A stretch of DNA of 64,000 bases from a virus (IMGVR_UViG_3300009094_001034:33174-97173), one strand, 5' to 3'. Numbered from the stretch's first letter, positions 3,261-52,200 are shown. Notes: generated from the letters alone by a model not told the origin. Numbers and translations are program-made.

Positions 3261-6200
3261 TTAGGCGGGAAGTCCGGTGCGGACGCGGCGAAGTTCGTTG
3301 GCCAGCGCACGCGAGACACGCTCCTGGATCGCGTGGAGGTCGTGTTCCGAACGGATCACGGGGTTGTGGATGTTCACGATCGTCGTTCCACCGCCGTTTG
3401 CGCGATGGCGCGGATCATCGCGACGCAGCACCTCTTCGCCAGGCGTGAGCATCGCGGGAACCGTGTCTCGGTATCCGATGCCGGGGACGACCCCGCCGCG
3501 AGCAAAGTGGTTAAAGTCGAAGGTCTCCCGTGCCCACAGGTCGGCACCTTGCGCAGCGAGCTTCCACCCGCTACTACCCCAGTCGGCGCCCTTGATCTTG
3601 TCGATGAAGCCATTCGCGGCATTAACCGTTACCTCGCCAGCCTTGATCTGGACGTTCTGGGCTTCGGCTTGAATGACCTGGGCACGACCCCACGGCGTGC
3701 CCAGGACATTGCTGGCCCCATCTTCTGCAGCATTCATGTCGTCGAATGCCTTCTTCAAGTCGTTCAGGTCTTTGATGCGCTCGTTGTTCGGACCGAGGAG
3801 CGACACGAGCATCGAGCCAGCGCGCTGCCCCATGAAGTCGAAGGAGTCGGCGACCGTCCAATTGGATGACGCCATCTCGTTCAGGATGGCGATCTGGCTC
3901 TTCAACGGCTTCTCCATTCCCTCGAACCGGAGTTCCAGCTTGGAGATCGAATCCTTCAAGAACTCGGACGACTCGGTAGCGTTGTCTTGCTTCTCCTTGT
4001 AGGCATCCATCGTCTCGCTGGCGTCCTTGATCGCATCGTCGTAGCCGCGAACAACCGCTTTCTGGTCGTCTTGGGCCGATTCAAGCTCTCCCACCCTCGC
4101 AGCAAAGAGTCGGCCCTCAGCGCCGAGACCAGGCAGCCTGCCAAGGATTGCGGCGGCGGATTGTTCGGGTGCGGTGATTCCAGCCGCTTCGGCCGCTGCT
4201 CGCTGCGCCTTCTTGATCGCGAGGAGGTCGTCACCGTACGTGACATCACGCTCCAGTCCCTTCGCTTGGGCGGCGCGTCGGAGGGCATCCACGCGCTGCT
4301 TCCCCCCTGCCTCTCGCTCCTGAGCTGCGGCGAGCTGCGGCCCGAGCCGCTGGGCCTCGGCGATCGCGTCCTGCACGTTCATGGGTGTGCCGCCGGCCTT
4401 GAGGGCGTCGTCGATGCCGCGTCGTGCGGGATCGAAGGCGAGATCCTTTTCGAGGTTCACGATCGAGAACTCGCGCTGCAGTCCGGCGATGCGACGAGAG
4501 AGCGCGTTCTGTTCGAAGAGCTGGTGCGGCGCGAGCTTCAGCTTCTCAAGCTCGAACCGCTTCATCTGCTGCTGGATCTGGAACGCGCGATCGTTGTAGG
4601 CGCGTTCGCCCACGAGTTCCGCGCTCTTCAACTCCTGGAGCCGCGTCTTCAGCTCGGAGGCCGTGCCCGCGGAGTGCTTCAGTGAATCGCCGAACTTCGC
4701 GCCAGCCTCGGCGCTGCGGAGCAACTGCAGTTCCTCGCGCTTCGCCGCCATTTCGAGCCGGGCAACTTCGTCATCAAACGCATCCATGCCGGAGATGCGC
4801 GGATTCGCAAGTTGTTGGATCTCGTTGCGGACATCGCCAAGGTGCGCCTTCGTCGCCTGCAGCGCTGCCGTCGTTTCCTCGAGCTGATCCCTGAACGCAC
4901 CCTGCTGATCTTTCAGATCATCGACGTCTCCAGCTGCTGCCTTCGCGAGCGCGCCGTACGACCGCATCTCAGCGCTCGCGTGCGCCTGTTCGCGATCGAG
5001 GTCGACAAGCTGTTGCTGCATTTCCTGCGTCGCTCGGGCGTTCTCTTGCATGTTCCGGAGCGTCGATCCGATCTCCGATCCAACCGTCGATGCCGCGCGC
5101 CCGAGCGAGCCAGGGACCTGTCCGCCGAACCTCCCGATGGTGTCCGCTGCACCGATGCCGGCGTCGAAGGATTCCGGGGTCTGGTAAATATTCACGCCGC
5201 GCCGAGCAAGGGTCGCGAGCTCCGAGGCCTTCGGGGCGTTGATCGCGCTGAAGAAGCGGCGCTGGAAGGTCGCAGGGCGGTCCCCCGAGACGCCGAGCGC
5301 CTTGAGCCGGGCCAGCACCGCAATGTAGTCCTCATACGCAGTCCCAGAGGCTTTGGCTGTCGATCCCGCGTCCCGCAGCGCCACCTGCATCTCTTGGGCG
5401 GTGAGGCCCGTTTCGCGGAAGGCCACGGTGACGGCGTTTGCCATGCGCTCCGTCTCCGAGAGAGGAAGATTGAACTGGTCCATCGACTCGGCGACGGTGT
5501 CCGCAACGTCACCCAGATCCTGCATCGTCGCAGTGGCCGCAAGGAGGATCGGCGAGAGGTTCTCCTTGGTCATCTGCGCGACGTCGAAGCCGGAGTCGCG
5601 GAACTTCTCAATGGCGTTGATCGTCTCGTCGGCGTTGAAGATCGTGCCCTTCGAAGCGCCGAACGAGAGGTCCGAAAGGAATGCTCGCGCGCCGCCGAAG
5701 CCACCCTTGTGCTCCTGGATCGACATCGCGACCTGCGAGAGGTCCTTGTCGAAGGTCAGTCCTTCCGAAACGGTGTCCTTCAGGAGTTGCCAGCTCTTGT
5801 AGAGGATTGCGACGCCCCCGGCGACACGCGTGAGAGTGCCGAGCATGGACTCCTGCTTCGCTTCGGCGCCCTGCGAAGCCGTATTCACCTGATCAAGTGC
5901 GGTGCGGAAGTGCCCGAGCTCGTCCTTCGTCGCGCGATAGACCGACTGCAGTTCGCGAACGGTGGTGCCCTGCGTCTTCGCGGAAATCGCGAACGCATCG
6001 ACGCCGGTCTTCGCGTCGGACATCGCGGCGCGCACTTGAAGCGTGGCCTGCGCAAACTCCTTCCCGGTGACGCCGTTGGCACGCAGTTGCTGCTCGGCCA
6101 TCTTGAGCTGGTTCTGCATGGCCGTGAAGTTGCCCTTCAACTCCGCGGCGGACTTCGCGATCTCATCTTGGGAACCCTCGGCGGTCTTGAAGAGCTGGCG

Positions 6201-6278
6201 GAGGGTTTGGTTCAGCTTCTCAACCGCGGCGGTGTCTGCCGCGGTGCCGATCGTGATGGTCTTCTTGATCGCCGCCAT
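3261..6278 (-). CDS. Tail tape measure protein (TP901-like core)
   Basis: 1005 aa, Ala/Gln/Glu-rich helical protein; TP901-type core (LLAATATMQDLGDVAD...MDQFNL); C-terminal FARGGVVPG...DTVPAMLTPGEEVL motif. Confidence 0.93.
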   Translation of the reverse strand: MAAIKKTITIGTAADTAAVEKLNQTLRQLFKTAEGSQDEIAKSAAELKGNFTAMQNQLKMAEQQLRANGVTGKEFAQATLQVRAAMSDAKTGVDAFAISAKTQGTTVRELQSVYRATKDELGHFRTALDQVNTASQGAEAKQESMLGTLTRVAGGVAILYKSWQLLKDTVSEGLTFDKDLSQVAMSIQEHKGGFGGARAFLSDLSFGASKGTIFNADETINAIEKFRDSGFDVAQMTKENLSPILLAATATMQDLGDVADTVAESMDQFNLPLSETERMANAVTVAFRETGLTAQEMQVALRDAGSTAKASGTAYEDYIAVLARLKALGVSGDRPATFQRRFFSAINAPKASELATLARRGVNIYQTPESFDAGIGAADTIGRFGGQVPGSLGRAASTVGSEIGSTLRNMQENARATQEMQQQLVDLDREQAHASAEMRSYGALAKAAAGDVDDLKDQQGAFRDQLEETTAALQATKAHLGDVRNEIQQLANPRISGMDAFDDEVARLEMAAKREELQLLRSAEAGAKFGDSLKHSAGTASELKTRLQELKSAELVGERAYNDRAFQIQQQMKRFELEKLKLAPHQLFEQNALSRRIAGLQREFSIVNLEKDLAFDPARRGIDDALKAGGTPMNVQDAIAEAQRLGPQLAAAQEREAGGKQRVDALRRAAQAKGLERDVTYGDDLLAIKKAQRAAAEAAGITAPEQSAAAILGRLPGLGAEGRLFAARVGELESAQDDQKAVVRGYDDAIKDASETMDAYKEKQDNATESSEFLKDSISKLELRFEGMEKPLKSQIAILNEMASSNWTVADSFDFMGQRAGSMLVSLLGPNNERIKDLNDLKKAFDDMNAAEDGASNVLGTPWGRAQVIQAEAQNVQIKAGEVTVNAANGFIDKIKGADWGSSGWKLAAQGADLWARETFDFNHFARGGVVPGIGYRDTVPAMLTPGEEVLRRDDPRHRANGGGTTIVNIHNPVIRSEHDLHAIQERVSRALANELRRVRTGLPA

Positions 6279-6892
6279 CAGCCGAGGACGGTGGAAACGA
6301 CTCGCTCAAGGACCGACGTCATCACCTCCTCGGCGTCATCGAACACGGAGGCCGTGCTGCGCTCGAACCAGTGCTGCGCGGGAATGCCGCGCTGGTTTCC
6401 AGGTGCGCGCTTCGTGGAGTGCTCATACCCCAGTTCATCCACGGCATGGTTCTGCGTTCCGACTTCGGTGAACCAGGCGTAGTTGTAGCGTTCCTTCCCG
6501 CGTGCGTGGGCGAGGACGCGAGCGACCATCTGGCGCTTCTCGCGCTGGAGCTTGTCGGCGCGGATGCCGTAATCCCGCAGCAGTCCCGAATCCACCGGCG
6601 ATGCGGCGCGCGCGTTCTCCGCCGCATCGGCGGCAATCTCCTGCATGCGGTTGGCGAGCGCATCACCGACGACCGATCCTTCACTCACGTCGTCGATGGC
6701 GGCGTCGAGCCGATGCACCCGCACAATCAGGTCATCGAGCGATAGGGTGTCTGCGGTGAGGAACCCCATGCCCTGCGTCATCGTCTGGCGCAGTTGCATG
6801 AGCGACGCGCCGTAGCGCTGGAGCCCGCGGGCATCAGCGTCTGCGACCTCCACGGTCAGCTCTGCGTCGATGGCGTCGTAGATGGCCTGCAT
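6278..6892 (-). CDS. HK97 gp10-like tail completion protein
   Basis: ARAASPVDSGLLR, YAWFTEVGT and IPAQHWF resemble the gp10 APVDTGxLR...YxxFxExGT...PAxPF pattern. Confidence 0.65.
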   Translation of the reverse strand: MQAIYDAIDAELTVEVADADARGLQRYGASLMQLRQTMTQGMGFLTADTLSLDDLIVRVHRLDAAIDDVSEGSVVGDALANRMQEIAADAAENARAASPVDSGLLRDYGIRADKLQREKRQMVARVLAHARGKERYNYAWFTEVGTQNHAVDELGYEHSTKRAPGNQRGIPAQHWFERSTASVFDDAEEVMTSVLERVVSTVLG

Positions 6893-18598: not shown

Positions 18599-20137
18599 CT
18601 ATCCGTTGAAGGAGAACGTTTCCATTTCTTGAACCTGCATCGTGTCTTCGATCACTTCGAGCAAGTAAGCCACGGCATCCGGCACGTCGTCGTGCTTCGC
18701 GAGAGGGAACTGCGTGAGCTCGTCGACCGCCGCGGTCGACACGGTGTCGCAGATGCGAACGCGCCACTGCTCGAATTGCGGCTGCCAGCGGATCATCCGG
18801 CGCACCTTGTCCTTGTCCGGCCGGACGCCCACGGTGGGGACGTACGATGCGCCGCGCGCAGAAGCGTCGTCCACCATCTGCTTCAGCGCTTCTTGGTACG
18901 CGACGACCTCGATCCCTACGCGCGTGTAGTCCCACTTCTGGTGCTGCTCGAGCAGCAGGCGTACTTGCTGCGGCGCGAGGATGTGTTCGCGGATGACGTC
19001 CCAGATATAGATGGTGCCGTCTTCGGCCCAGCCGCCGGTGGCGAGGACGAAGTAGTCGGCGCCGTCCTTCTGCGAAATCGCGACGTCCGCCGCACCGAAA
19101 CGAACGAGGTCTTCGAGCTTGATGGAGGCATCGCCATCCAGGATGAGGTTCGAGTCGCGAATGAACTTCGGCCGCTTGCGGTCCGCGCTCTCCACCCAGC
19201 TTCGCTTGATGACCGTGGAGCCTTCGGGGATGGGGTCGTTCTGGTATTCAGTCTGGAAGGCGAAGGACCCGATGGCCTTCTTCACCTTCATGAGCGCGAC
19301 GTACGGGAAGCGGTCCGGCCAGAGCGTGGCCGTTCCCTCGTCCATCGCTGCGCGGTGCTTCGCGTAGAAGGCGTCGGCCGCCTCCTCGCCGCCTTGCGTC
19401 CAGGCGGCGTCCCACTGCTCCCAGAGGTCCGGGCGGTTCGGTTCCGAGAGGATCGCTTGGCGGTAGAAGACCCGGTACGCGCCCGTCTTCTTCTTCCGGA
19501 GGATCAGCGCGTCCTGGTGAAGCGTGGTGCCCACCATGAGGAGGCGCGAGTGCGCCGGGTCGCGCATCGGGATGACCGAGGCGTTGAACCATCGCTCGAC
19601 CTTCTGGCGCTGGTGTTCGGTCTGAACGGAGTCGTCATCCTCGACGTCATCGGTGATGACGAGTTGCGGACGCCACTGCTTGAAGCGCCAGCCGCGCGTC
19701 GAAGATCCGCGGCCGGCGGACCGGATACAGACGTCGGTCGTGGTGATCAGCTTCTTCTCAGTCGTGTTCTTGAGGATGTCGCCGAAGACGGCGCGCAAGC
19801 GCTCGTTCTTCTCCATCTCCTCGTTGATCGAGAAGAGGAGCGTCTTTGCCTGGTCGCCGGTCTCTGAGAACAGAACGATGAAGTGGTACTTCTGGAAGTA
19901 GACGCACCAGAGGACGTAGGCGAGCGAGATGACGGTGGACTTCGCGTGGCCTCGCGGAAGGATGAAGATGCCGTCTTCGGTGTGCTCGGTGAGTTCCGCA
20001 ATCAGTTCCCGGTGGAAGTCGGGAATCTGCGCAGGGAAGTACGCGGCGAGGAAGTACTTGCAGAAGAACGCGAAGTTCCGCTCTGCCTTCCTCCGCGCCG
20101 CAGCGATGACGACCCGAGACTGCGGGGCAGTGGACGT
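18599..20137 (-). CDS. terL: Terminase large subunit; N-terminus extends about 107 codons upstream of the ORF-track ATG
   Basis: The in-frame upstream region encodes the Walker A motif PRGHAKST; Walker B ITDDVED, VGTTLH, DVAIS...DY and KHDDVPDA nuclease motifs follow; proposed start is ACG at 20137. Confidence 0.9.
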   Translation of the reverse strand, partial: TSTAPQSRVVIAAARRKAERNFAFFCKYFLAAYFPAQIPDFHRELIAELTEHTEDGIFILPRGHAKSTVISLAYVLWCVYFQKYHFIVLFSETGDQAKTLLFSINEEMEKNERLRAVFGDILKNTTEKKLITTTDVCIRSAGRGSSTRGWRFKQWRPQLVITDDVEDDDSVQTEHQRQKVERWFNASVIPMRDPAHSRLLMVGTTLHQDALILRKKKTGAYRVFYRQAILSEPNRPDLWEQWDAAWTQGGEEAADAFYAKHRAAMDEGTATLWPDRFPYVALMKVKKAIGSFAFQTEYQNDPIPEGSTVIKRSWVESADRKRPKFIRDSNLILDGDASIKLEDLVRFGAADVAISQKDGADYFVLATGGWAEDGTIYIWDVIREHILAPQQVRLLLEQHQKWDYTRVGIEVVAYQEALKQMVDDASARGASYVPTVGVRPDKDKVRRMIRWQPQFEQWRVRICDTVSTAAVDELTQFPLAKHDDVPDAVAYLLEVIEDTMQVQEMETFSFNG

Positions 20138-20172
20138 GGGGTGGGGTGGTGAATGCTCCTTCGAGCGTCACG

Positions 20173-20571
20173 TCAGGGCGCGGCGGTGGTCAACGTCCCG
20201 ATGGTGTTCTGGTCGACGTCATGGAGGATCTCGCCCAAGATCAGCTTCAACACACCGCGCTCCTGGCGCATGAGGATCTCCAGGTTCGTGAGCATCTGAT
20301 CCGAGAGCGGGTGGGCGTCGATGATCAGGTCCTTCTCGGCCATCGTGAAGAGCCGGGAAGAGACGAGGCGGCGGTAGAACGCTTGGTCCTCCCACGGGAA
20401 GTGCTCGGTTCCATGGAGGAGTTCCAGTTCCTCTTGCCAGTCATCGCCACTGAACTCCGCGGTGAGAGCACGGTGCACTGCGAGATGGCCGCCTTCTCGG
20501 AAGGCGTCGTAGGCGAGGGTCTTCAGTTCGTCATGGCGATGCTCGGAGAGGAGATCGAGGGCACGAGGCAC
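20173..20571 (-). CDS. Hypothetical protein
   Basis: Co-oriented ORF upstream of terL with a C-rich leader. Confidence 0.55.
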   Translation of the reverse strand: MPRALDLLSEHRHDELKTLAYDAFREGGHLAVHRALTAEFSGDDWQEELELLHGTEHFPWEDQAFYRRLVSSRLFTMAEKDLIIDAHPLSDQMLTNLEILMRQERGVLKLILGEILHDVDQNTIGTLTTAAP

Positions 20572-20598
20572 GACGAGTGGTGGTAGGTCTTCCTCAGA

Positions 20599-20772
20599 CT
20601 ATGCCGGCCGGGACCTCGCTTCAAGCCGCTCGCGGAGCCTGGCCGCTGCGTCCTTCGCCTTTCGCTCCGCGATCTCCGCGGTCAGCGCCCGCTCGTCGAT
20701 CTCTGGGTGGCCGGCAACGTAGCCATGCCAGATGCCGCCGATCTTCCGCACCGTGATCTTCACGTCGTCCAT
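20599..20772 (-). CDS. Small hypothetical protein (57 aa)
   Basis: MDDVKITVRKIGGIWHGYV...; start estimated. Confidence 0.45.
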   Translation of the reverse strand: MDDVKITVRKIGGIWHGYVAGHPEIDERALTAEIAERKAKDAAARLRERLEARSRPA

Positions 20773-20877
20773 GCAGGCATCGTACGGAGACCGCGGTGCA
20801 GCGCGAAACAAACGCCGCAACCACTCTCTGTGGGGACAGTCGGCAATCCACGGCGTGAAGACTCCTGAGAAAAGTTG

Positions 20878-20907
20878 TTGCGCCCGCTAATCGTGCTTTG
20901 GTATAAC
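20878..20907 (+). promoter_or_regulatory. Sigma70-like promoter upstream of the GHKL operon
   Basis: TTGCGC-N18-TATAAC with an extended -10 (TGn). Confidence 0.55.
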
Positions 20908-21013
20908 CCCTCTTGCGCAGTTGCGCCTTTCTCCACGGGGCTTCAATAGCAGGTCCCAAAAGCGAGACGGGAACGATGAGCGAAACGAAAAGCACAGCTA
21001 CACCCTCGTTGCT

Positions 21014-21050
21014 GCCGACCACTGTTCTGCGGGTCGGCTCTTTTTGTTTC
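21014..21050 (+). terminator. Terminator-like hairpin in the leader of the GHKL operon
   Basis: GCCGACC...GGTCGGC followed by TCTTTTTGTTT. Confidence 0.55.
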
Positions 21051-21182
21051 TGCTCCCATGCCGACGAAGCGCGCCCTCCTCCTCGCCCATCTCAACTGCG
21101 TGACGACTCCGTTCGAACGACAACATGAAACCTAACCGGACTCCAACAGCGAGGACGGCAACAGAAAATTAGGAGAGACCCA

Positions 21183-22979
21183 ATGGCGAAGAAGAACGGC
21201 TCTACCTTCACGAGTGAAGACCTTCAGAGTCAGGACACCTACGTGGAGAAGTTGGAGCAACAGCATTTCTCGTATCCCCTCATCGCGGCCGAGTCGTTCG
21301 TCCGCGGCATGCGCGAGTCCGGCTACAAGTCGACCGCGACGGCACTGAACGAGTTGATCGACAACGCCATCCAGGCACAGGCCCGGAACGTCGACGTGAT
21401 CCTCGGCTACAACGCCGGCAACAAGACGAAGAAGAAGCCCGACATGCTGGCCGTCGTAGATGACGGCCACGGAATGCGGGAGAAGATGATCAAGGCCTCC
21501 GTCATGTGGGGCGGCACGCACCGCGAGAACGACCGTCACGGCTTCGGCCGGTTCGGGTTCGGACTCCCGAGCGCGTCCGTCTCGATCGCGCGCCGCTTTT
21601 CGGTGTACTCGAAGGCCCCTGGCGACAAGTGGTTCGTCATCGTCATCGACCTGGACGAAATCGCGTTGGGCCGCGCGACCGACGAGAAGGGCGTGGTGAA
21701 GGTGCCGGAAGCGGTACTGGCGGAACTGCCCGAGTTCGTGAAGCCCTACGCCTCCGGCCTGGAGCACGGGACCGTCATCCTGCTGGAGAAGTTGGACCGG
21801 CTGTCGAACGGATTCGTGACGTCGCAGGCATTCAAGCAGAACGAACTGCACCAGGTCGGCGTGACGTATCGCGAGATCCTGCGCGACGTGCAGGTCCGCG
21901 TCATCGACATCGGCGAGGAATTGGACATCACGGCCGTCGAGCCGATCGATCCGTTGTTCCTCCGCCCGGACGCGCGGTACTACGACGAGACCGACGTCCA
22001 CGCCGAGCCCCTGCCAGACTTGGCGTTCGAGGTGAAGCCGTCCGAGGAGTCGCCGTACGGCGGCGTCGTGCGTGTGCGGTACGCCTACATGCCCCCGGGG
22101 TTCCTGCCGGATGAGTCGAAGCGTTCCAGCCCCCGCCTCAAGGTCCGCAAGGAGAACACGGGCCTCATCATCATGCGCGCCGGCCGCCAGATCGACGTCG
22201 TGACGAACGGTCCGAAGTTCAGCGTCGACTCCAACGACCGTCATTGGGCGTGCGAGGTGATCTTCGAGCCCACGCTGGACGAAGACTTCAGCGTGACCAC
22301 GAACAAGCAGCAGATCGTGATCAAGGACCGGATCTGGGAGGCGCTGCGGCAGAACGGCGTGTTCGACGCCATCCGCCAGATGCGCAATCGGTACGGGAAG
22401 GATCATGGCTACACCAAGGGGAAGAAGGCCGAGTCCGAGCCGAAGGTGTCCGAGGAGATCGCGACCGAGGCCGCCAAGTTCTTCGGCCGGAAGCCGACGA
22501 AGCCGAGCGTCGCGAAGGAGAAGAAGCTGAAAGAGGCGCTCGACCGCGAGGCGGTGAAGGTCGCCGAGCAGAAGGGCACGAGCCCGGAGGAAGCGAAGAA
22601 GGTGATCGAGGCCGAGACGGCTGAGAAACCCTACAAGCTCTTCTTCGAGTCCGGCCGCGGAGAGTTCTACCGCGTCGAGCAGTTGGGCGGCCAGAAGCAG
22701 CTCTACATCAACACGTCCCACCGCTTCTACTCCGACGTCTACAACAACCCGCTGACGACGAACCGCATGCGCACCGCGCTGGAGTTGCTGCTGTTCACGA
22801 TGGGCGCCTGTGAGCTCGAGTCTGAAGGCGACCGGGAGATGTTCTACACGAATGAGCGCGTCGAGTGGACGCGGCGGCTCGACACGTATCTGCAGTTGCT
22901 GGATCGTCGCGATCCGGTCGCCGATGCCCGAGCGGCCGAAACCACGCGCGCCGAGGCCGAAGACGAGTCGGCGGCGTAG
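21183..22979 (+). CDS. MORC-type GHKL (HATPase_c_3-like) ATPase 1
   Basis: Bergerat motifs ALNELIDNA, DDGHGM, GRFGFGL and HGT; S5-like region GLIIMRAGRQID; AGGAG RBS. Confidence 0.88.
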   Translation: MAKKNGSTFTSEDLQSQDTYVEKLEQQHFSYPLIAAESFVRGMRESGYKSTATALNELIDNAIQAQARNVDVILGYNAGNKTKKKPDMLAVVDDGHGMREKMIKASVMWGGTHRENDRHGFGRFGFGLPSASVSIARRFSVYSKAPGDKWFVIVIDLDEIALGRATDEKGVVKVPEAVLAELPEFVKPYASGLEHGTVILLEKLDRLSNGFVTSQAFKQNELHQVGVTYREILRDVQVRVIDIGEELDITAVEPIDPLFLRPDARYYDETDVHAEPLPDLAFEVKPSEESPYGGVVRVRYAYMPPGFLPDESKRSSPRLKVRKENTGLIIMRAGRQIDVVTNGPKFSVDSNDRHWACEVIFEPTLDEDFSVTTNKQQIVIKDRIWEALRQNGVFDAIRQMRNRYGKDHGYTKGKKAESEPKVSEEIATEAAKFFGRKPTKPSVAKEKKLKEALDREAVKVAEQKGTSPEEAKKVIEAETAEKPYKLFFESGRGEFYRVEQLGGQKQLYINTSHRFYSDVYNNPLTTNRMRTALELLLFTMGACELESEGDREMFYTNERVEWTRRLDTYLQLLDRRDPVADARAAETTRAEAEDESAA

Positions 22980-22996
22980 CCGACAGGGACCAACGG

Positions 22997-23025
22997 AAGG
23001 CCCGGGTTCTCCCCGGGCCTTTTCG
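22997..23025 (+). terminator. Intragenic-operon hairpin between the two ATPase genes
   Basis: AAGGCCCGGG-ttctc-CCCGGGCCTT-TTCG. Confidence 0.6.
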
Positions 23026-23041
23026 TTCATGAGGAGAACGA

Positions 23042-24505
23042 TTGAAGAATGGAGAGATCATCGCGCTGGCGACCTTCATCGACGCCATCCGTGACGCCGG
23101 GTACCGGGGCACGCCCGCAGCGATCGCCGAGTTGGTGGACAACGCCATGGAGGCCGGAGCGACGAACATCACCATCGAACTCTGGACGACGGACGACGGA
23201 ACGTCGGTGTACGTAGCCGATAACGGCTGCGGCATGCCGCCCGAGACGATCCGCCTCGCCCTGCAGTTCGGCGGCAGCACCCGCTTCGATTCCCGCGCGG
23301 GGCTCGGGCGGTACGGTATGGGGCTCCCAGGAAGTTCGATCAGTCAGGCATTGCGTGTCGACGTGTATTCGTGGACGACGCGCGGTGCGGCCTGGTGGAC
23401 CTTTCTGGATGTCCCGATGATCCGCGGCGGCGCCCTCGTAGCCGTGCCGAAACCGCGGCGTGCCACGCCACCCGTGGGACCGCGAGAGACGACGAGCGGC
23501 ACCATCGTCCAGTGGACACACTGCGATCGCATCCCGAGCATCACCCCACGCCTCCTGCGGGAGATCCACGAGACCATCGGCCGGCTGTTTCGGACGTTCC
23601 TGTGGGCCGGAGCCACGATCACCGTGAACGGCGTCGAGGTGCAGCCCGTTGATCCGCTTTTCCTGCGGCCGTCAGCGGCGCCGGTCGGAGCACGCCAGTA
23701 CGGCCCGGAGTTGATCTTCCCCATCACCCTCCGAGACGGGAACAGGAAGCGCCACGCCACCGTGACGGCGCAGTTCGTCGAACTGCCGATCGCGGAGTGG
23801 GAAGGGCTTTCGAATGCGGAGAAACGGAAGTATCGGATCTCCAAGTCTCCCGGCATCTCCATCCTCCGCGCCGACCGGGAGATCGACACCGGCTGGTTCT
23901 TCATGGGATCGAAGCGGAAGGAGAACTACGACGATTGGTGGCGTGCGGAAGTGCGGTTCAGCCCCGAGCTCGACACGTTCTTCGGCGTGACGCACACGAA
24001 GCAAGGGATCCATCCGACCGCCGAGATCGAGGCCATCTTGTCGCCGCAGATGGAGCGGATCGCACATGACCTGAACGCCCGCGTCCGGAAGACGTTTCTC
24101 CGCGTTCGGGCGACGGAGCCGAATACCCGCGCGATCGACTACGCCTCTGCTCGGGACCACCGGTTGGAGCCGCCGAAGCGTGCGGTTCGCCGCGGCGCAA
24201 TGAAGGCGAAAACACGAGGATTGACCTACTCCATCGAACACGCGAAACTCCCCGGCCCGCGGTTCTTCGCCGTGCGGATCTCAGACGGCCGGGTCAGAAT
24301 CATCCTCAACGAGGATCACCCGTTCTACACGGTCGTTTACGGGGACAATCGGAAGCGCGATGCGACACAGGATCGTCTCGCGCAGTTGGAAATGATGCTC
24401 CTTGCAGCAGCGCGCGCGGAAGTCCAGTGTGTGCGAAAAGAGAAGGTGGAGGCGAGGGCGTTTCTCCAACAGTGGAGCGATGCTCTCCGGACGTTTTTGA
24501 CCTAG
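23042..24505 (+). CDS. MORC-type GHKL ATPase 2 (paralogue of ATPase 1)
   Basis: AIAELVDNA, DNGCGM, GRYGMGL and SGT; shares PxDPLFLRP, ExxFxPxLDxxFxVTxxKQ and NxxHxFY with ATPase 1; GAGGAG RBS before TTG. Confidence 0.88.
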   Translation: MKNGEIIALATFIDAIRDAGYRGTPAAIAELVDNAMEAGATNITIELWTTDDGTSVYVADNGCGMPPETIRLALQFGGSTRFDSRAGLGRYGMGLPGSSISQALRVDVYSWTTRGAAWWTFLDVPMIRGGALVAVPKPRRATPPVGPRETTSGTIVQWTHCDRIPSITPRLLREIHETIGRLFRTFLWAGATITVNGVEVQPVDPLFLRPSAAPVGARQYGPELIFPITLRDGNRKRHATVTAQFVELPIAEWEGLSNAEKRKYRISKSPGISILRADREIDTGWFFMGSKRKENYDDWWRAEVRFSPELDTFFGVTHTKQGIHPTAEIEAILSPQMERIAHDLNARVRKTFLRVRATEPNTRAIDYASARDHRLEPPKRAVRRGAMKAKTRGLTYSIEHAKLPGPRFFAVRISDGRVRIILNEDHPFYTVVYGDNRKRDATQDRLAQLEMMLLAAARAEVQCVRKEKVEARAFLQQWSDALRTFLT

Positions 24506-26482
24506 ATGGCGGATGAACGAGAGTGGTTCCCTTTTCAGCCCGAGCTCGGGCAGCACGTCGAGGAGTTCACGACGTTCGCTACGCGCTTGGCTGAAGCCAC
24601 AGACCTGAAACCGCTGCGACTCGAGGTGCTCCGGGAACTCGACCGGGCGAAGAACGGCGCGCTCCCGCTCCACATGGTCCAGAGCATTGCCCTCGACCTC
24701 GCCGATCAGGGCTGGGGATTCAGCGTCGATCGAGACGGGATCGCATGCTCCGCTCCATCTGTCGCGGATGAATGCTCGGCGAGCGCAAAGACACGCATCC
24801 GTCAGGGCCACGCTTTCGAGCGCTCCGCCCACCTGCGCGAACCCTCCGTCCAAGACTTCATTGCGGCGATGGAACAGCGAAGGCTCACGGCGAACGGCTG
24901 GCATTCGATCTACTCGCTCATGCGCGATGGCCGGGAACTCGGCGCGAAGTTGGCTGCGGCCGCGACGCTTGAAGGCGCCGCGCGCGAGAAAGCGCTTGCA
25001 GCAGCGATTGATCCCTACATCCAGTTCGTTGATCCGGATGTCGTCGACGAGCACACGGGACTCCTCCTCACGGACATCTGGCGCTACTTCCGGATGACGT
25101 GGGTGAACATGCACAAGTCCGTTCCTGGCCGCACGATGATGATCCTCATCCGCGACCGAGCCGCGGCACAACATCCGGTCATCGGGATCGCGGCGCTCGC
25201 GAGCGCCGTGGCGCAGTTGGACCTGCGAGACTCGTGGATCGGATGGAATGCTGCGGCATTCCTCGACCACCTGGACAACGAAGGGAACGCAGCAGATGCG
25301 AAGTGGCTCCACGCATCCATCGACAATCTCCTCGACGCGATCTACCTGAAGGATCTCCTCAAGGAGAAGATCATCAGCAAGGCGCTCATCGCGACGCCTA
25401 CCGAGGACCTGATCCGAAACCTCCGGGATGCGGCAGCGGAAGCGAAGAAGAAGCACCACCAGAACGCCGATGCCGCGGCGATGAAGCGCAAGGACGTCGC
25501 TTGGGAGGAGAAAGCGCTCCTGCCACTCTTTCGCGCGAAGCGCTGCGAAGCGCTGGCAAAACTCCTCGGTATCCGACTCGTGTTTCAGAAGGTCGGTTTC
25601 AGTACCGGCTCTAAGAAAGCGCTCGACCTCGCACTCTCGCAGCCCTCAGCGCGGACGGCGATCGGCCAACTCGTGCGGGCAGTGAAGTCGGAGCACGTCG
25701 GTATCGACATGATGGACATTACAGTCTGCGGCGCGGTGGCGCCGTACAACCGCGTGCTCGGCGGGAAACTCGTGTGCACGCTCCTCACGAGCCCCGAAGT
25801 CGTGCAGGCGTACAAGCGACGGTACGATGGCCAGGAAAGCATCATCGCGTCGTCCATCAAGGGCGCTCCGGTACGCCGAACGCCACGGCTCGTGCTGCTC
25901 TCCACGACGAGTCTCTATGGCCGCGGCTCAAGCCAGTACAACCGCGTGAAGATCCCGGCGGGCGTGGCGGGCGGAGCGGACGGGGATGTCGTCGAGTACC
26001 GACATCTCGGCCACAGTAAGGGCTTCGGGACCTTCCATTTCAGCGCCGAGACCGTGCGCGTCATCGATACTCTTCTCGCCAGACGCCAGGACGGAAAGCG
26101 GGTGAACTCCATCTTCGGAGAGGGCGTGAATCCGCGGATGCGGAAGATCCGCGAAGCGCTCGAATCCGTGCGGTTGCCGAGCGACGCCATCTTGAATCAC
26201 GGCGTTCCGCGCGTTGTGTACGGCATCGCGCTCGCGTCGAATTTCCGCGACGTGCTCCTCGGTCGGCAAGACAAGCCGCGCTACGTGATCCCGCAAACGA
26301 AGCCTGCGGAGCGGTCGGCCCGGCTCGCGGCCTTCTGGCGAACGCGATGGCTATCCAATCGCATCAATGATCCTGCGGTGCTCTCGGACATTGCGGAGCA
26401 CACGCTGTCGTACCCCGTGACGCATGGAGCTCGCGTCGTCGGTCCGCCTATTGAAGGAGATGAGAACGAGACCCTATGGTGA
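24506..26482 (+). CDS. DruA-like (DUF4338) protein
   Basis: PGRTMMILIRD, RDSWIGW, CGAVAPYNRVLGGKLV, TTSLYGRGSSQYNR and LGHSKGFGTFHF match my recollection of DruA/DUF4338 motifs. Confidence 0.8.
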   Translation: MADEREWFPFQPELGQHVEEFTTFATRLAEATDLKPLRLEVLRELDRAKNGALPLHMVQSIALDLADQGWGFSVDRDGIACSAPSVADECSASAKTRIRQGHAFERSAHLREPSVQDFIAAMEQRRLTANGWHSIYSLMRDGRELGAKLAAAATLEGAAREKALAAAIDPYIQFVDPDVVDEHTGLLLTDIWRYFRMTWVNMHKSVPGRTMMILIRDRAAAQHPVIGIAALASAVAQLDLRDSWIGWNAAAFLDHLDNEGNAADAKWLHASIDNLLDAIYLKDLLKEKIISKALIATPTEDLIRNLRDAAAEAKKKHHQNADAAAMKRKDVAWEEKALLPLFRAKRCEALAKLLGIRLVFQKVGFSTGSKKALDLALSQPSARTAIGQLVRAVKSEHVGIDMMDITVCGAVAPYNRVLGGKLVCTLLTSPEVVQAYKRRYDGQESIIASSIKGAPVRRTPRLVLLSTTSLYGRGSSQYNRVKIPAGVAGGADGDVVEYRHLGHSKGFGTFHFSAETVRVIDTLLARRQDGKRVNSIFGEGVNPRMRKIREALESVRLPSDAILNHGVPRVVYGIALASNFRDVLLGRQDKPRYVIPQTKPAERSARLAAFWRTRWLSNRINDPAVLSDIAEHTLSYPVTHGARVVGPPIEGDENETLW

Positions 26483-26973
26483 ACGTCCTTGAAGATCTGT
26501 ACCACGTGAGCGCGACGCCGCGTGAGTTGAGTTGGCAACCGTCCCTGAAATCGAAGACGTGGGATGACGCGACGAAAGAGGAGATCGAGACGGCCCTCGA
26601 TGCGCAGCGCCCAGCGCAGGCTCCGTCGCGGCGCAAGAGCTACTTCGCGTTCCGAACGATCGACGAGTGCGTCTACTACGCCGACTCGGAGGGCATCGGG
26701 CCGGAACGCCACTTCTACGTGGTGAAACTGACGGGAGCTGTACGGGCGCCAATCAAGATCATCGCGGTGCCCCCTGCATTGTTGCCGTACCGCGACGCGA
26801 TCTACCGTCACTACTGGAACGCCGACGACGGGTGGAAGGTCTACGAACTTTTTGGCGAGCAGATGATCGTGCGGGACGAATACAAGGGCACGATCCCTGA
26901 CGCTGGCCATGTGCTTGCGAAGTTGGTTGATGACCGGAACCGCCTGATGCAACTGGCTGCAACGTGGCGATGA
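26476..26973 (+). CDS. Putative DUF2441-like / ADP-ribosyltransferase-fold protein
   Basis: LYHVS, RPAQAPSRRKSYFAF, FYVV, YW and YEL pattern; overlaps the DruA-like stop. Confidence 0.5.
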   Translation: MVNVLEDLYHVSATPRELSWQPSLKSKTWDDATKEEIETALDAQRPAQAPSRRKSYFAFRTIDECVYYADSEGIGPERHFYVVKLTGAVRAPIKIIAVPPALLPYRDAIYRHYWNADDGWKVYELFGEQMIVRDEYKGTIPDAGHVLAKLVDDRNRLMQLAATWR

Positions 26974-27425
26974 CCGATGAAGTGCTGGAGGTGTTGCGTC
27001 AGGCGAAAGTGCTTGCGCAGCGCTATCGTGCGCTGACGGGAAAGCCGCTCGGGATCACCGGAGAGGTGGCCGAGTACGAAGCCGCTCGAATCCTGGGAGT
27101 GCGACTTACGCCGGCGCGGCAATCGGGACACGACGCCGTCGAGATCGTTGATGGCCGCGAACGCACGCTCCAAATCAAGGGGCGATGCATCCTTCCGGGG
27201 GCGAAGAAGAGCCAACAGACGGGTTCCATCGATATCGAGAAGGCGTGGGATGCGGTACTTCTCGTGCTCGTCGACGAAAGCTTCGACGCGTACATCATCT
27301 ATGAAGCGGAGCGCGACGCCGTTCTGAAGGCGATCCTTGAACCGGGCTCGAAGGGGAGAAACGAGCGGTGGGCGCTGTCGGTGAGCAAGTTCAAGGGCAT
27401 TGGACGCGAGCGCTGGAAGCGCTGA
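26970..27425 (+). CDS. Small PD-(D/E)XK restriction-endonuclease-like protein (DUF6998-like)
   Basis: GITGEVAEYEAA...GHDA...LQIKGR motif; ATGA overlap. Confidence 0.7.
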   Translation: MTDEVLEVLRQAKVLAQRYRALTGKPLGITGEVAEYEAARILGVRLTPARQSGHDAVEIVDGRERTLQIKGRCILPGAKKSQQTGSIDIEKAWDAVLLVLVDESFDAYIIYEAERDAVLKAILEPGSKGRNERWALSVSKFKGIGRERWKR

Positions 27426-27441
27426 CGGTTATTCTTCTGCC

Positions 27442-28248
27442 ATGAACGATGTGCCGCAGCCGACCGCGTACGAGGAACGTTTCATTGCGTTCGTGGATGT
27501 GTTGGGTTTCGGCGCGCTGGTGTCCGAGTCGGGAAAGCCAGGTGCGGATGCGGCGGGGACAATCAAGCGAATCTGTGATGCGATTCTGTGGTCGCGGGAA
27601 GAACTCGAAGATCTGTTGAGTGGTTCTTCCGATTTCGTCTTTACGCAGTTCTCAGACTCCTTCGTGATCAGCACGGAGGCGTCGAATGAGACCCAACGAT
27701 TCGGCCTCAGCCAGTTTGCCTTCGCAGTGCGCGCGATCATCGATTGTTTCCTCGGGTCTGACTTGGTTCTGCGCGGTGGTGTTACGCGCGGTCCGCTGAT
27801 TCATACGCGTGAACTTCTCTTCGGCCCTGCGATGAACCGCGCGTATGAGTTGGAGTCTCGCGTGGCGAATGTTCCTCGGATCATCTTCGACCCGGACATC
27901 CCTGCCGTCCGTGATGCGCTGATGACGGACTACATGCCGGACTACGTGGCGAGAGACACGGACGGGTTCTTTTACGTCGACTACTTCTCCCCTACGAAGA
28001 AGTTCTTTCTCGTTCCGAGCTGGCTGTACTCCATTCAGCGAATCATCGAAGCAATGCCGGTATCGGCGGCGCTCGCGGCAAAACGCGAATGGATGGTTGC
28101 GAAGTTCAATGCGCGCCTCGAGGGTTTCTCATTCGAAGCGTTCAAGGCACGGCTCGATGACTACGTCGACGACACGGACGCGATCAACGCCGTCATCGAA
28201 GACTACGAGAAACTCCTTGAGCCGGCGCGGCGTCTGCGACGGTTGTAG
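27442..28248 (+). CDS. Class III nucleotide-cyclase-like protein
   Basis: FIAFVDVLGF, QFSDS, LRGGVTRG and FGPAMNRAYELES...PRII. Confidence 0.7.
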   Translation: MNDVPQPTAYEERFIAFVDVLGFGALVSESGKPGADAAGTIKRICDAILWSREELEDLLSGSSDFVFTQFSDSFVISTEASNETQRFGLSQFAFAVRAIIDCFLGSDLVLRGGVTRGPLIHTRELLFGPAMNRAYELESRVANVPRIIFDPDIPAVRDALMTDYMPDYVARDTDGFFYVDYFSPTKKFFLVPSWLYSIQRIIEAMPVSAALAAKREWMVAKFNARLEGFSFEAFKARLDDYVDDTDAINAVIEDYEKLLEPARRLRRL

Positions 28249-28296
28249 GAAGTTCGAAGGCGGTGACGCCCGACCATCACCGCCTCGACGAACGAC

Positions 28297-28638
28297 TTAG
28301 ACCGTCGCGGTCTGGAGCAGGGCGAACACGTTCTGCCCGTGGCGGTTCTTCCTGTTCGCTGCGAGGCGTACGTCCAGCGCTTTCTCCTCCCTCTCCGTCA
28401 GGGGCGTGACGAGGATGCGCGGCGCGACGGCGTACGAACGTGCGATCTGCAAGCACGTCGGGAGGCGGGGCGTCGTCTTGCCGGCCTCCCACTGCGAAAC
28501 GGAGAACGGGCTGACGCCGAGCTCGCGTGCCGCATCCGTGATCGTGCGATCCGACATCACGCGGAGATGCTTGAGACGACGCCCGAACTGCTTGGGGGTG
28601 GTGGATACCTCGGACTCTGCAGTCGACTGTACTGCCAT
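28297..28638 (-). CDS. XRE-family HTH repressor
   Basis: FGRRLKHLR...AARELGVSPFSVSQWEAGKTTP. Confidence 0.85.
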   Translation of the reverse strand: MAVQSTAESEVSTTPKQFGRRLKHLRVMSDRTITDAARELGVSPFSVSQWEAGKTTPRLPTCLQIARSYAVAPRILVTPLTEREEKALDVRLAANRKNRHGQNVFALLQTATV

Positions 28639-28658
28639 GAGAATTGGGGGTAGGAAGT

Positions 28659-28689
28659 TGATGCGCAAACACTAAGTGTTTGCGCATCA
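28659..28689. promoter_or_regulatory. Perfect 31-bp palindrome, probable operator
   Basis: TGATGCGCAAACACT-A-AGTGTTTGCGCATCA between divergent HTH genes. Confidence 0.7.
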
Positions 28690-28838
28690 TTCTGCAACGA
28701 AGGTGTCAAGCGAACTTCGTCTCCATGGGTGCACTCTCCCCCGTGTAGAAGCCGCCTAACTCTCGTCGCAGCGTGCTACGATTTCTCGCGACACGACCAC
28801 TCCGGCGTGACCCATATGCGTCATGAAGGAGATGGTCG

Positions 28839-49229: not shown

Positions 49230-52200
49230 TCAGAACAGGTTGAGCTGGTGGACGGGTGCTGTGATCGCCGGAATCGGCGGCAGAGGCATCTCGTCGGGTA
49301 CGGCCTCTATCAGTGCCGGAGTGCTCGGCGCTTCCGACTCGATGATGTCCGCGCGCACGATGCGCGGTCGTGTTGCAACTCGTCGCGCCACGTCGAGTTG
49401 CGCCGCGCTCGTCGCACGTTCGAGGATGTCCGCGACGGAGCGATAGCGCTGCTCCGCGTCGATGGCCTCCTTGAGTGCCTTGTACTTGGCGTTGCAGAGC
49501 TCGAGCATGTCGTCGTCGATGGTGCCGGAGGAGAGCACGATGTGCTCATGCACCTCTTTGAGCTGGCCAGGGCGGTGAATCCGGCCGCAGACCTGCGTCA
49601 GAGATTCCGGGCTCCACTCCACGGCGGCCACGATGATGTGGTTGGCGCCGGTGATGTTGAGACCGCGGCAGATCGCGCCCATGGATGCGAGAAGGACGGG
49701 CGTGGTGTCGTGGTTGAAGGTTTGCGTGATTGCGTGGCGATCATCCACCTTCGTTGAGGCGAGGATGGATGTGAACGCGATCTTTTCCGCACGCAGGCGA
49801 AGTGCAATTTCTCTCACCATGGGCCGGAGCGGCGAGGTCACGATGACCTTGTCCCCCTTCGCAATGATCTCGCGGACCAGCCGCATGATCGTGTCGAGCT
49901 TCGCCCAGGACGAACCCAGAGGGAGCACGGCGGAGCGCGGCCCGTCTTCGTACGCGAGATGTTCGGATGCAGTAGGAACCGAGGCGGCGAACCGCATGGC
50001 CCAGAGCGTCTGCGAGATGATCCCCATATTCACGTCCGCGCCCTGGTGCTGCGCGAGCTCGCGGTTGATCTTGTCGGTCGCCCATCCTTCCCAGGCGTCG
50101 TAGACGCGGCCTTGGTCGGCGCGCATCGGGACGGAATGGATGTGGCGCTGCTTCGGTGGGAGGACAGCCATCTCGCCATCGACGCGCCGCACCATGAACG
50201 GGGCCATCATGCGCGCGAAGAGATTGAGACTTGAGACTTCGGGGAGGAGCAGCGCCTTGCCCGTGTGGAGCGTGTCTTCGTACTCCTTCGTCACGAACTT
50301 GTACGTGGCGTAGCAGTCGAGGAATCGTTTTGCGCCTCCGCCATAGGAGTACGGGAACAGCGGGTTGTTCCATCGAAGAACGAACGACACGAGCCAAAAG
50401 AGGTCCGTGACGTAGCCCTTAAAAATGGTCGCGGTGAGGATGAGGAGCCCCTTCGATTTCATCGAGCGGAGCGCCTGCCCACGGAGGGACAACTTGCTCT
50501 TCGCGACCTGCGCTTCGTCGGCGATCACGCAAGGAAAGAGTTTCGAGAGTGCCTTGTAGCCGGGACGCTGTCGACGCTCACCGTTGTAGGTGTAGGCGAC
50601 GAACGAGCACGCACCGCACACCTGGCCGTTCCACTTCTCGGTATCGCTGCACTTCGGGCACTCCTTCACGGTGTTCTGGAAGGCCGCCCCGCAGTCGCAG
50701 GTCTCGGTTGTGATGTTGGCTGCTTCGTGGCGGACGTTGCCGTCCTTGTCGTACTTCACGCAACTCCACGGCGTGAAGGTTTTGGATCCATCGAGCGCGA
50801 GGAACTCGTACGACGTGATGTAGAACCCAGTCGGCTTCTCGCCACGCCGGATGCGTGCGCGCAGTTCTGCCACGCTGGTGTGTGTCGTGAGGCGGTGACC
50901 TTCCACGCCGAACTTCTGGCACTCCGCCATCCAGTTCTCGACGAGTCGCGATTCACACACCACGAGCACGCGCTTGTACTGCCGCGCGTTCGCCCATGCG
51001 ATCGAGCTGCAGGTCTTCCCACCGCCGACTTCCCAGCCGATGTAGGCGCGGGCCTTCGTGACGAGACGCGCGACGTCTTCCGCTTGGTAATCGAGGAGGA
51101 ATGGCGACTGCGCGGCGAGCAGTGCGCGGTTGCGTTCGACTTCCTGCGTCAGCAGGTCATCCACGTCCTCGATCTCGGGGAGCGGGAATGCGTTGAGGAA
51201 GACCGACACCGCGGCCTCGTCGATCTCCGGGACGTGGAACGTGCCGACGTCGGTCTCGACTTCGAGGAGCAGGTAGCCGCGCTCGATCTCGACTTTCGTG
51301 GTCTCGTCGCGTTTCTTCGCTTCGTTGTAGCTCGTCTCTTCCGAGGCGAGTTCCTTCTTGCGAATCCACGTGGGATGGACACGGTACTCGCGGCCGGCGC
51401 GCCACAACGTGGCCGTCGTTCCGTGCTCGGTGCCGAGCACGACGCTCCCCTCCTCCACGAGCACCGAGGCGGTGACGTCGGCGGTCGCGGTGTACGGCTT
51501 GTCGTCGAAGTAGCCGAGGAGTTGGTGCGCCTTCGGGCGGTAGAGCGGGATCGCCAGGCGGTCGTAGTGCTTGCGCTTCGTTTCGATCCGATCAGCGGTG
51601 CGCTTTGCGATATCGGGCGTGAAGCCGAGCGTGCGGAGCGCACGAATAGCAACGTCCCAGCCGCGCTTGATGAGCGCGGGAGTGGAACAGTACGCGTCGA
51701 TGATCCCCGTTGTGACGCCCTGCACGGGTGAGTACGCTGTGGCGCTCGCGTTCAGGAAGTCGAGCATGGCGCGGGCCGACAGGCTGCCGGTGACACCTTT
51801 CTCGGTGATCGTCACGTTCGTGTCGATCGGGAGCCGCACGAGGAGCCCGACCTGCGGAAGGTCGAGCGGCTTGGTCGCGGGGAGTTTCAGACCGTCGAGC
51901 CCTTCGAGCAACGCGGACGCGAGATCCGACGGGAACGATACGTTGCGCGTGTCGAGGCTGCGCAGTGTCGTCGCAATACGACGCTCGCGCGGGTCACGGT
52001 AGGCAGATCGGGTGGCGAGCACGAGGTCCACTTGGACATCGATCCCGTACTCATCCTGGAAGGCGTGCTCCAGTGTGATGCGCGAGCGGACGCTGTAGCT
52101 GTTGTACAGGTGCTGGCGGAGCGCCTCATCTTTCGCGTTGTCGAACGTGGACGTCGGGATGATTGCGACGAGCAGACCGCCATGAACGAGCGCACTCGTG

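Follow-up and report, generated by a model that had tools for sequence, protein, structure and literature searches.

Background

Few known anti-phage systems are as strong as Druantia type I. It reportedly has the composition DruA-DruB-DruC-DruD-DruE, as laid out by Doron and colleagues in 2018, and to our knowledge its mechanism has stayed unexplained since then. Prokaryotic MORC and paraMORC ATPases of the GHKL type are, according to work of Iyer, Abhiman and Aravind from 2008, said to be linked to restriction-modification loci. Here we describe an operon in which proteins of both kinds are encoded side by side. It lies at positions 21183-28248 of a 64,000-nucleotide stretch of viral DNA (IMGVR_UViG_3300009094_001034:33174-97173, hereafter the window), taken from an IMG/VR provirus record of 97 kb. 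Its six genes encode, in order, two GHKL ATPases (ATPase1 and ATPase2), a long DruA protein (gene 3) and three small proteins (genes 4 to 6). We propose, with a probability of about 55%, that the prophage here carries a version of the front end of a long-DruA branch of Druantia type I with two ATPases and no helicase, as cargo that most likely protects the lysogen.

Gene 3 (24506-26482, plus strand, 658 amino acids (aa)) is a true DruA. It matches the Pfam family DruA (PF14236, E = 1.5e-32) and, end to end, the PADLOC model DruA1 (PDLC00001, E = 3.2e-178, profile positions 28-668 of 675). The locus nevertheless departs from Druantia type I in several respects. Its DruA is long, compared with about 410 aa in the canonical system; it is preceded by a GHKL ATPase that is absent from the canonical system and from the PADLOC definition; and a second GHKL paralogue occupies the place of the helicase block. 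The models for DruE (PDLC00013) and DruD1 found no match in the whole 97-kb provirus record, and those for DruB, DruC and DruD found none among the six operon proteins, to which the DruB and DruC scan was limited. A first-pass annotation of the window, made by a model from the sequence alone, had likewise recognised no DruB-E gene.

Three other groups of described proteins resemble parts of the operon. Both ATPases share the HATPase_c_3 Bergerat fold with MORC/paraMORC proteins and MzaB, and a conserved lysine (K320 of ATPase2) may correspond to that of GHKL transducer domains; the setting in a mobile element or near defence genes is also like that of MORC/paraMORC ATPases. Unlike in the Mza system, the ATPases of the window have neither MzaA, C, D or E nor a methylase or SF2 helicase as neighbours; their partner is instead the GNAT-fold DruA. 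The Mom protein of phage Mu is the top structural match of the DruA catalytic domain, and both are phage-borne, but DruA is three times longer, has N-terminal helix/hairpin modules and a 150-residue helical insert, and needs an ATPase partner, and the likeness is one of fold only (8% identity). Gene 5 resembles the nucleases BisI and Eco15I in its full-length match to the mREase_II model and in size (153 aa versus 174 aa); unlike them, it sits inside an operon, behind DruA.

No PADLOC model has the composition ATPase1-ATPase2-DruA or covers the ATPase component of the long-DruA branch, and existing defence-finder models would flag the locus merely as a stray DruA. The literature searched contains no paper that brings together DUF4338 or Druantia and a GHKL ATPase, or Druantia and GNAT, a result that is not proof of non-publication, and nothing there assigns a role to DruA-D. 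The first-pass annotation, too, had known of no named system of this composition. What we add is an unlisted, near-obligate ATPase partner of long DruA; statistical and phylogenetic evidence that the second ATPase and DruB-E are alternative partners of this pair; the finding that DruE is missing genome-wide from most of the genomes checked whose locus has no Druantia neighbours, a test of the GNAT/Mom idea by structure search and a link to an m6A-like (N6-methyladenine-like) signal; and an assignment of each of genes 4 to 6 to a fold or family.

A conserved gene pair: ATPase2 and long DruA

A scan of one genome per species recovered 228 DruA relatives, and the best 80 were kept with 10-kb flanks. 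These loci span Acidobacteriota, Verrucomicrobiota, Bacteroidota, Gemmatimonadota, Pseudomonadota, Actinomycetota, Myxococcota, Spirochaetota and others. Long DruA proteins form a large family (2810 of the scored candidates at E <= 1e-10) with about 50% identity across phyla; the closest relatives of the window protein are 72-83% identical to it (P0007-P0012). In 77 of the 80 loci, the gene immediately before DruA, in the same orientation, is an ATPase2 orthologue, and two of the other three have less than 3 kb of upstream DNA. ATPase2 and long DruA are a fixed gene pair in many phyla.

The neighbouring open reading frames (ORFs) were clustered and representatives scanned with PADLOC. In 49 of the 80 loci, DruD1, DruE1 (E = 0) and a 976-aa protein adjoin the pair. 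Some Druantia-flanked loci add a Cas4-like nuclease; others have separate DruB-like, unnamed and DruD-like genes instead. The internal order of the pair is constant and its placement relative to the DruD-DruE block varies, being co-directional (upstream or downstream), divergent or convergent. The canonical short-DruA Druantia type I locus on Pseudomonas putida pKF715A contains no GHKL gene. Because the pair stands beside DruD and DruE in so many loci, we conclude that it forms the front of a separate Druantia type I branch with long DruA, and is not an unrelated system. The DruA of the window had been described as an orphan, a label that is too simple.

Second ATPase genes and DruB-E rarely coincide

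Genes like ATPase1 (37-53% identity) occur in 17 of the 80 loci, in tandem before ATPase2-DruA in 13 and elsewhere in the locus in four; a further nine loci carry a third GHKL paralogue. The tandem GHKL-GHKL-DUF4338 arrangement, which a survey of gene neighbourhoods had been suggested to look for, thus recurs in other genomes. Partner statistics were restricted to loci flanked by at least 8 kb on each side, of which there are 57. Druantia genes flank 32 single-ATPase loci and are missing from four. Among loci with an ATPase1-like second GHKL gene they are present in two and missing from 12 (Fisher p = 1.1e-6 versus single-ATPase loci), and among third-paralogue loci present in one and missing from six (p = 2e-4 versus single-ATPase loci). 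As related loci share states, the test was redone with pairs from the DruA tree that are phylogenetically independent: about 8.5 of the 12 pairs agree, none disagrees and the rest are uninformative (median sign-test p = 0.004). The second GHKL gene and the DruB-E block rarely co-occur and behave as alternative partners of ATPase2-DruA, an association that is strong, not absolute.

The helicase is also missing at the level of the genome in most cases. At E <= 1e-50, DruE was found nowhere in eight of the ten genomes whose locus has no Druantia neighbours, two actinomycete isolates being among these DruE-less genomes; the other two carry DruE elsewhere. The ATPase1-ATPase2-DruA trio is a recurrent helicase-less form. 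On the DruA tree the window groups with locus L057, which has twin ATPases and no Druantia genes, and with L082, a contig from the viral collection. Of the long-DruA loci retrieved from 2.9 million viral contigs, the window is the only helicase-less twin. The first-pass annotation had taken the trio for the core of a distinct system. It was right that the twin form recurs and is anti-correlated with DruB-E; that it is distinct does not hold, as the trio is a variant of Druantia type I.

A tree of all GHKL genes from the DruA loci places the second ATPases in a separate clade of 26 sequences (support 100), apart from the ATPase2 clade. This separate placement shows that the second ATPases are old paralogues and not recent duplicates. 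We had also considered a recent tandem duplication as the source of the two ATPases; it was rejected on the low identity between them (26-28%) together with the separate old clades.

Several Bacteroidota twin-ATPase loci (L019, L031, L033 and L041, at about 3500-6600) share a further feature, a small sigma-70 region 2/helix-turn-helix (HTH) protein encoded directly upstream of ATPase1. A YunG-family gene and a gene for an uncharacterised 345-aa protein stand beside it.

The two GHKL ATPases

ATPase1 (21183-22979, plus strand, 598 aa) is the accessory paralogue, of MORC/MutL-like GHKL type, and ATPase2 (23042-24505, plus strand, 487 aa, with a TTG start after a GAGGAG site) is the fixed partner of long DruA. 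Both match Pfam HATPase_c_3 (E = 5.4e-19 and 1.2e-19, respectively), in agreement with the annotation of twin MORC-type ATPases, and the nearest PDB sequence matches of ATPase2 are MORC2 and MutL (E about 2e-5). The Bergerat ATP-binding motifs (ExxxN, DxGxG and the glycine-rich lid) are present in the two proteins. In ATPase1 they read ELIDN, DDGHGM and GRFGFG; in ATPase2 the residues E30, D33, N34, D60xGxG64, G89RxGMG94 and K320 Q321 are invariant in 26 orthologues. Both ATPases therefore retain the motifs predicted to bind and hydrolyse ATP. K320 and Q321 of ATPase2 belong to the segment THTKQ, which in ATPase1 reads TTNKQ; this part of the protein may be an S5-like transducer domain, with K320 as the putative gamma-phosphate lysine.

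Models for MzaB and MutL cover only the N-terminal GHKL part of both ATPases and score far under the family cut-offs. Membership of the Mza system was rejected accordingly, the two proteins reaching 67.4 and 65.7 bits against an NCBIfam MzaB equivalog cut-off of 850.

DruA has a predicted GNAT fold

The AlphaFold2 model of DruA was built from 38 sequences and has a mean confidence (predicted local distance difference test, pLDDT) of 84.8. The whole model had no PDB match at E <= 0.001 with Foldseek, and a profile search of the DruA family against PDB sequences returned chance-level rows only. In an exhaustive VIA-align search, all 50 top rows were GNAT-fold proteins (Z 7.2-8.9, covering residues 164-597). 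The first row was phage Mu Mom (8bv8_B, Z 8.9, 174 residues aligned); rows less than one Z unit apart count as tied, and Mom is tied with ordinary acetyltransferases. The modelled catalytic domain has a GNAT acyltransferase fold, split by the helical insert of about 150 residues. The two N-terminal helix/hairpin modules look winged-helix-like, judging from the order of their secondary-structure elements. DUF4338 has already been named a GNAT in passing by Aravind and co-workers (PMC10853773), so the GNAT fold of DruA is not in itself new.

In the region where motif A would hold the pyrophosphate of the acyl donor, strand 402-410 leads into the sequence A-P-Y-N-x-L-L-G-G-K-L, with which helix 414-426 starts; this sequence differs from the textbook Q/RxxGxG/A motif. 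P413, Y414, G420, K421 and L422 are invariant, and G419 is nearly so. A second conserved segment is the loop NSIFGEGVNP (residues 534-543, window 26105-26134), which is mostly invariant over the 38 sequences (S535, F537, G538, E539, G540 and P543). Residues 530-541 form one of three stretches of the model with pLDDT below 50, and the loop may be a mobile catalytic or substrate-binding element.

More distant relatives of DruA were also encountered. Against BFVD, the top viral structural matches of the model are uncharacterised giant-virus proteins, from Faunusvirus (A0A3G4ZXG3, E = 7e-9), Yasminevirus (E = 2e-6) and Dasosvirus. On a Hymenobacter canadensis plasmid (L085, 4955-14288), a DruA-annotated protein of 1052 aa is encoded divergently from a DUF3883 protein of 1578 aa, possibly a further and more remote case of a DruA-type domain paired with a large ATPase-type protein.

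Genes 4 to 6 and a close relative of the operon

Gene 4 (26476-26973, plus strand, 165 aa) is predicted to have an ADP-ribosyltransferase (ART) fold of the BC2332/Arr kind, as its description as ART-like had anticipated. Its AlphaFold2 model (pLDDT 93.8) matches BC2332 (2aua, E = 1e-5) and Arr (E = 8e-3, probability 1.0) in Foldseek, followed by the RES toxin and the S1 chains of pertussis and cholera toxins. P46, R52, Y113, W114, W120 and E124 are invariant, with H10 and Y81 nearly so; R52, E124, H10 and Y81 are candidates for an H-Y-E or R-S-E catalytic constellation. Its neighbours in the ESM Atlas carry DUF2441 in part, and Pfam assigned no family, ART included, to any of 40 gene 4 relatives, whose aligned sequences vary too much to define a search pattern.

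Gene 5 (26964-27425, plus strand) matches the PADLOC model mREase_II (PDLC03209, E = 6e-51, residues 4-152 on profile positions 10-158 of 166), Pfam DUF6998 (E = 5e-7) and, weakly, Eco15I in the PDB (8q5m, E = 0.0046). These matches assign its predicted product to the BisI/Eco15I-like family of modification-dependent restriction endonucleases and support the suggestion of a PD-(D/E)XK nuclease. Homologues with 53-59% identity occur in 11 other proviruses without the other five genes.

Gene 6 (27442-28248, plus strand, 268 aa) is a class III nucleotidyl-cyclase-like protein and an add-on specific to the window. It matches phrog_23933 (E = 2.6e-26), and its structural neighbour in the ESM Atlas is a "guanylate cyclase domain" cluster (template modelling score 0.73). 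The residues F17xD19xxG22F23, S71D72, R111G112 and F127G128P129 are invariant, and the segment FGPAMNRAYELES resembles FGDTVNxASRxES without its arginine. Gene 6 had no Pfam or PDB sequence match, and its family profile gave chance-level rows against PDB sequences.

Within the 80 genome loci and three viral loci, none of the three genes lies near DruA, apart from one remote relative of gene 6 (in L046, 5 kb from DruA and on the opposite strand), and scans of viral contigs with single proteins found no relatives of gene 4 or gene 6. DruA is followed by genes 4 and 5 in a single close relative, a metagenome locus (L098/L099) that keeps the order of the first five genes, with identities of 69% (ATPase1), 79% (ATPase2), 74% (DruA), 60% (gene 4) and 76% (gene 5). 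It has the same 7-nt overlap between DruA and gene 4, and no gene 6. Compared with this relative, the ratio of nonsynonymous to synonymous substitution rates (dN/dS) is 0.11-0.28 for genes 1-5 (0.28 for ATPase1), with dS near saturation, values that point to purifying selection on all five. As genes 4 and 5 stand beside DruA only there, and gene 6 is absent there, the three are lineage-specific cargo: genes 4 and 5 are an accretion of a sub-lineage and move together with the triad, gene 6 is one more addition, specific to the window, and none is a general component. Of the two roles proposed before for the small enzymes, effectors or separate cargo, that of cargo is the one upheld, and that of general effectors is contradicted by their absence near DruA in the 80 genome loci.

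The metagenome relative lies in another mobile element, with a DnaG-like primase upstream. Downstream of the cassette (6486-13489 of L098) are genes for a 4Fe-4S ferredoxin-domain protein with a weak DUF6414 match, for uncharacterised proteins, including one of 862 aa, and for a protein with a Shedu SduA_C nuclease domain. This gene content resembles that of a defence island, carried on the primase-bearing element.

Interpretation and alternatives

The ATPase2-DruA pair has one of two partners beside it, the DruB/C-DruD-DruE helicase-nuclease block or a second GHKL paralogue of ancient divergence (ATPase1 in the window); loci with both are rare. In our proposal, the two ATPases would form an ATP-gated, MORC-like clamp on DNA, probably as a heterodimer, which would position or activate DruA. 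DruA in turn would move an acyl or aminoacyl group onto DNA (onto adenine, as Mom does) or onto a DNA-bound protein, and in the twin form ATPase1 would provide the partner function given elsewhere by DruB-E. A defence role is rated most likely on account of the cargo position beside a repressor gene, the defence genes neighbouring the metagenome relative and the pattern of substitution. Several observations count against this proposal. In the nearest DruA relative fetched (L082, 53% identity), the twin ATPases and DruA are immediately preceded by genes for DruE and a Cas4-like nuclease, so that the twin and helicase forms are not strictly exclusive. The helicase-less state is scattered on the DruA tree (11 changes for 15 rows), which makes it a recurrent state, arisen or lost many times, and not one stable lineage. 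Most of the genomes checked for DruE are metagenome-assembled genomes of unknown completeness, and DruB-E could act in trans from the host genome outside the 97-kb provirus. Nothing in the triad can be recognised as a nuclease or other killing domain, and its defence role is a prediction from the genes alone. Finally, Z values of 8-9 are moderate for a domain within a 658-residue model, and the Mom match is tied with those to ordinary acetyltransferases.

The main alternative, an unlikely one although with several points in its favour, is that the locus is an orphan DNA-marking module: DruA and the ATPases would write the non-methyl "self" mark of Druantia type I, a Mom-type N6-adenine adduct, and the prophage would keep only the harmless writer half, shielding its DNA from Druantia-type or other restriction in the manner of orphan methyltransferases and Mu Mom. 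Mom, the top structural match of DruA, is a DNA-adenine modifier that uses charged tRNA (PMC13219725). A preprint describes a PacBio "m6A" signal at CAGCTGNC that appears only when cells express Druantia type I, a system with no methylase domain, and it assigns the signal to no gene (10.1101/2024.04.14.589459). This signal would fit such a mark; the report is, however, unreviewed and concerns a short-DruA system. The constant order of the pair and its variable placement relative to the DruD-DruE block resemble a two-module layout of the restriction-modification type, and the same phage carries a methyltransferase-helicase fusion. Weak support comes from a sample of 401 genomes, in which full-length DruE1 occurs with DruA in four of four cases and long DruA occurs without DruE in two of four, an asymmetry drawn from tiny samples. 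A pure writer, however, would not need a second ATPase, and since the gain of the second GHKL gene tracks the loss of DruB-E, it looks like a functional substitution, which argues against a pure writer. Moreover, that the window is the only helicase-less twin among the fetched viral loci speaks against a common phage strategy. A broader version of the chemistry, which we also consider unlikely, is that DruA is a Mom-like writer of a non-methyl DNA-adenine adduct, loaded by MORC-like ATPases and the source of the m6A-like signal of Druantia type I, the twin form being a free-standing, phage-captured, ATP-driven system of epigenetic marking or silencing. If DruA were Mom-like in this sense, it would supply the missing "modification" activity of Druantia type I. 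The enzymatic idea, a GNAT-fold, Mom-like transferase acting on DNA, concerns a three-gene construct far smaller than the 12-kb full system.

The distribution of the six genes bears on two further explanations, both of which we consider improbable. In one, all six genes would form a single system, with ATPase1-ATPase2-DruA as a sensor core that drives the ART-fold, nuclease and cyclase-like proteins as dedicated effectors. Stop/start overlaps join genes 3 and 4 and genes 4 and 5, both small genes appear to be under purifying selection, and the metagenome relative keeps them after DruA in the same order and with the same overlap despite its other flanks. That relative nevertheless lacks gene 6, genes 4-6 are missing beside DruA in the genome and viral loci surveyed (the remote gene 6 relative apart), gene 5 homologues occur alone in other proviruses, and the gene 5 family consists of self-sufficient modification-dependent restriction enzymes. 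In the other, the operon would be an inactive leftover, the front of a Druantia type I locus laid out as DruE-nuclease-ATPase1-ATPase2-DruA and idle without DruB-E. The arrangement of L082, with DruE and the Cas4-like nuclease upstream of the same three genes where the window has phage terminase genes, is what such a history would predict; it is hard to reconcile, however, with ORFs that are all intact, catalytic motifs that are retained, and dN/dS values of 0.15-0.28 against the 69-79% identical copies in another element, which is also without DruE within reach. The independent recurrence of the helicase-less twin form in several phyla speaks against it as well. On balance we prefer the helicase-less twin-ATPase form with a protective role.

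Prophage setting and gene layout

DNA of this provirus was found in rhizosphere metagenome DNA runs. The window has a G+C content of 63%, and the third-position G+C content of the six ORFs is 0.75-0.91, which fits coding sequence expected in DNA of this composition. The ORFs lie on the plus strand, at the coordinates given by the first-pass annotation and antisense to the phage genes. To their left, on the minus strand, are genes for the terminase large subunit (TerL), portal, major head protein, tape measure and tail; to their right are a cI-like HTH gene and then a Cro-like gene, and phage genes go on downstream. With phage late genes on one side and a cI/Cro-like switch on the other, the six genes are inside the prophage, at a typical cargo position. 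The cI-like repressor gene (28297-28668, minus strand) is convergent with the operon and matches Pfam HTH_31 (E = 1e-10), HTH_3 (E = 2e-9) and PHROG families of transcriptional repressors.

The junctions were read directly in the sequence and bear out the translational coupling described for genes 2-5. ATPase2 and DruA meet at TAG|ATG (24503-24508), DruA and gene 4 share the 7-nt overlap ATGGTGA (26476-26482), and genes 4 and 5 overlap by ATGA (26970-26973), or by more if gene 5 starts at the alternative GTG at 26964. A 16-nt gap, also as described, separates gene 5 from the ATG of gene 6 at 27442. The expected closing hairpin folds at 28252-28293 (plus strand) with -21.6 kcal/mol (z -4.3, none of 200 shuffles equally stable); it is common to the operon and the convergent repressor gene and has no U-tract. 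Between ATPase1 and ATPase2, a GC-rich hairpin with the U-rich tail UUUUCGUU (22992-23027, plus strand, -25.2 kcal/mol, z -2.3) was also picked up by a terminator scan and is a candidate terminator or attenuator. The metagenome relative has a hairpin of other sequence at the same position (z -4.7). The operon had been credited with its own promoter, which our consensus scan did not confirm: no sigma-70 consensus promoter was found in 20500-28800, and the host may use other promoter types. Regarding noncoding RNAs, no tRNA or Rfam family was found in the window.

Some minor features of the surrounding DNA complete the picture. About 130 nt upstream of ATPase1, a weak hairpin (21014-21050, plus strand, -13.8 kcal/mol, z -1.9) is followed by CUCUUUUUGUUU and may be the end of a short upstream transcript, or a chance fold. 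In the TerL region (18599-20571, minus strand), a 405-aa ORF covers only positions 361-713 of a 760-position PHROG profile, and separate ORFs (19758-20171 and 20173-20571) lie directly upstream of it; the gene may be split, frameshifted or started at a non-canonical codon. Further along, a 1155-aa protein (49230-52697, minus strand) joins a DNA methyltransferase-like region at its N terminus to a helicase (phrog_6380, phrog_62), and near its gene a ParB-like protein (42807-43430, minus strand) also matches the methyltransferase family phrog_498. The phage may thus also modify its own DNA by conventional means.

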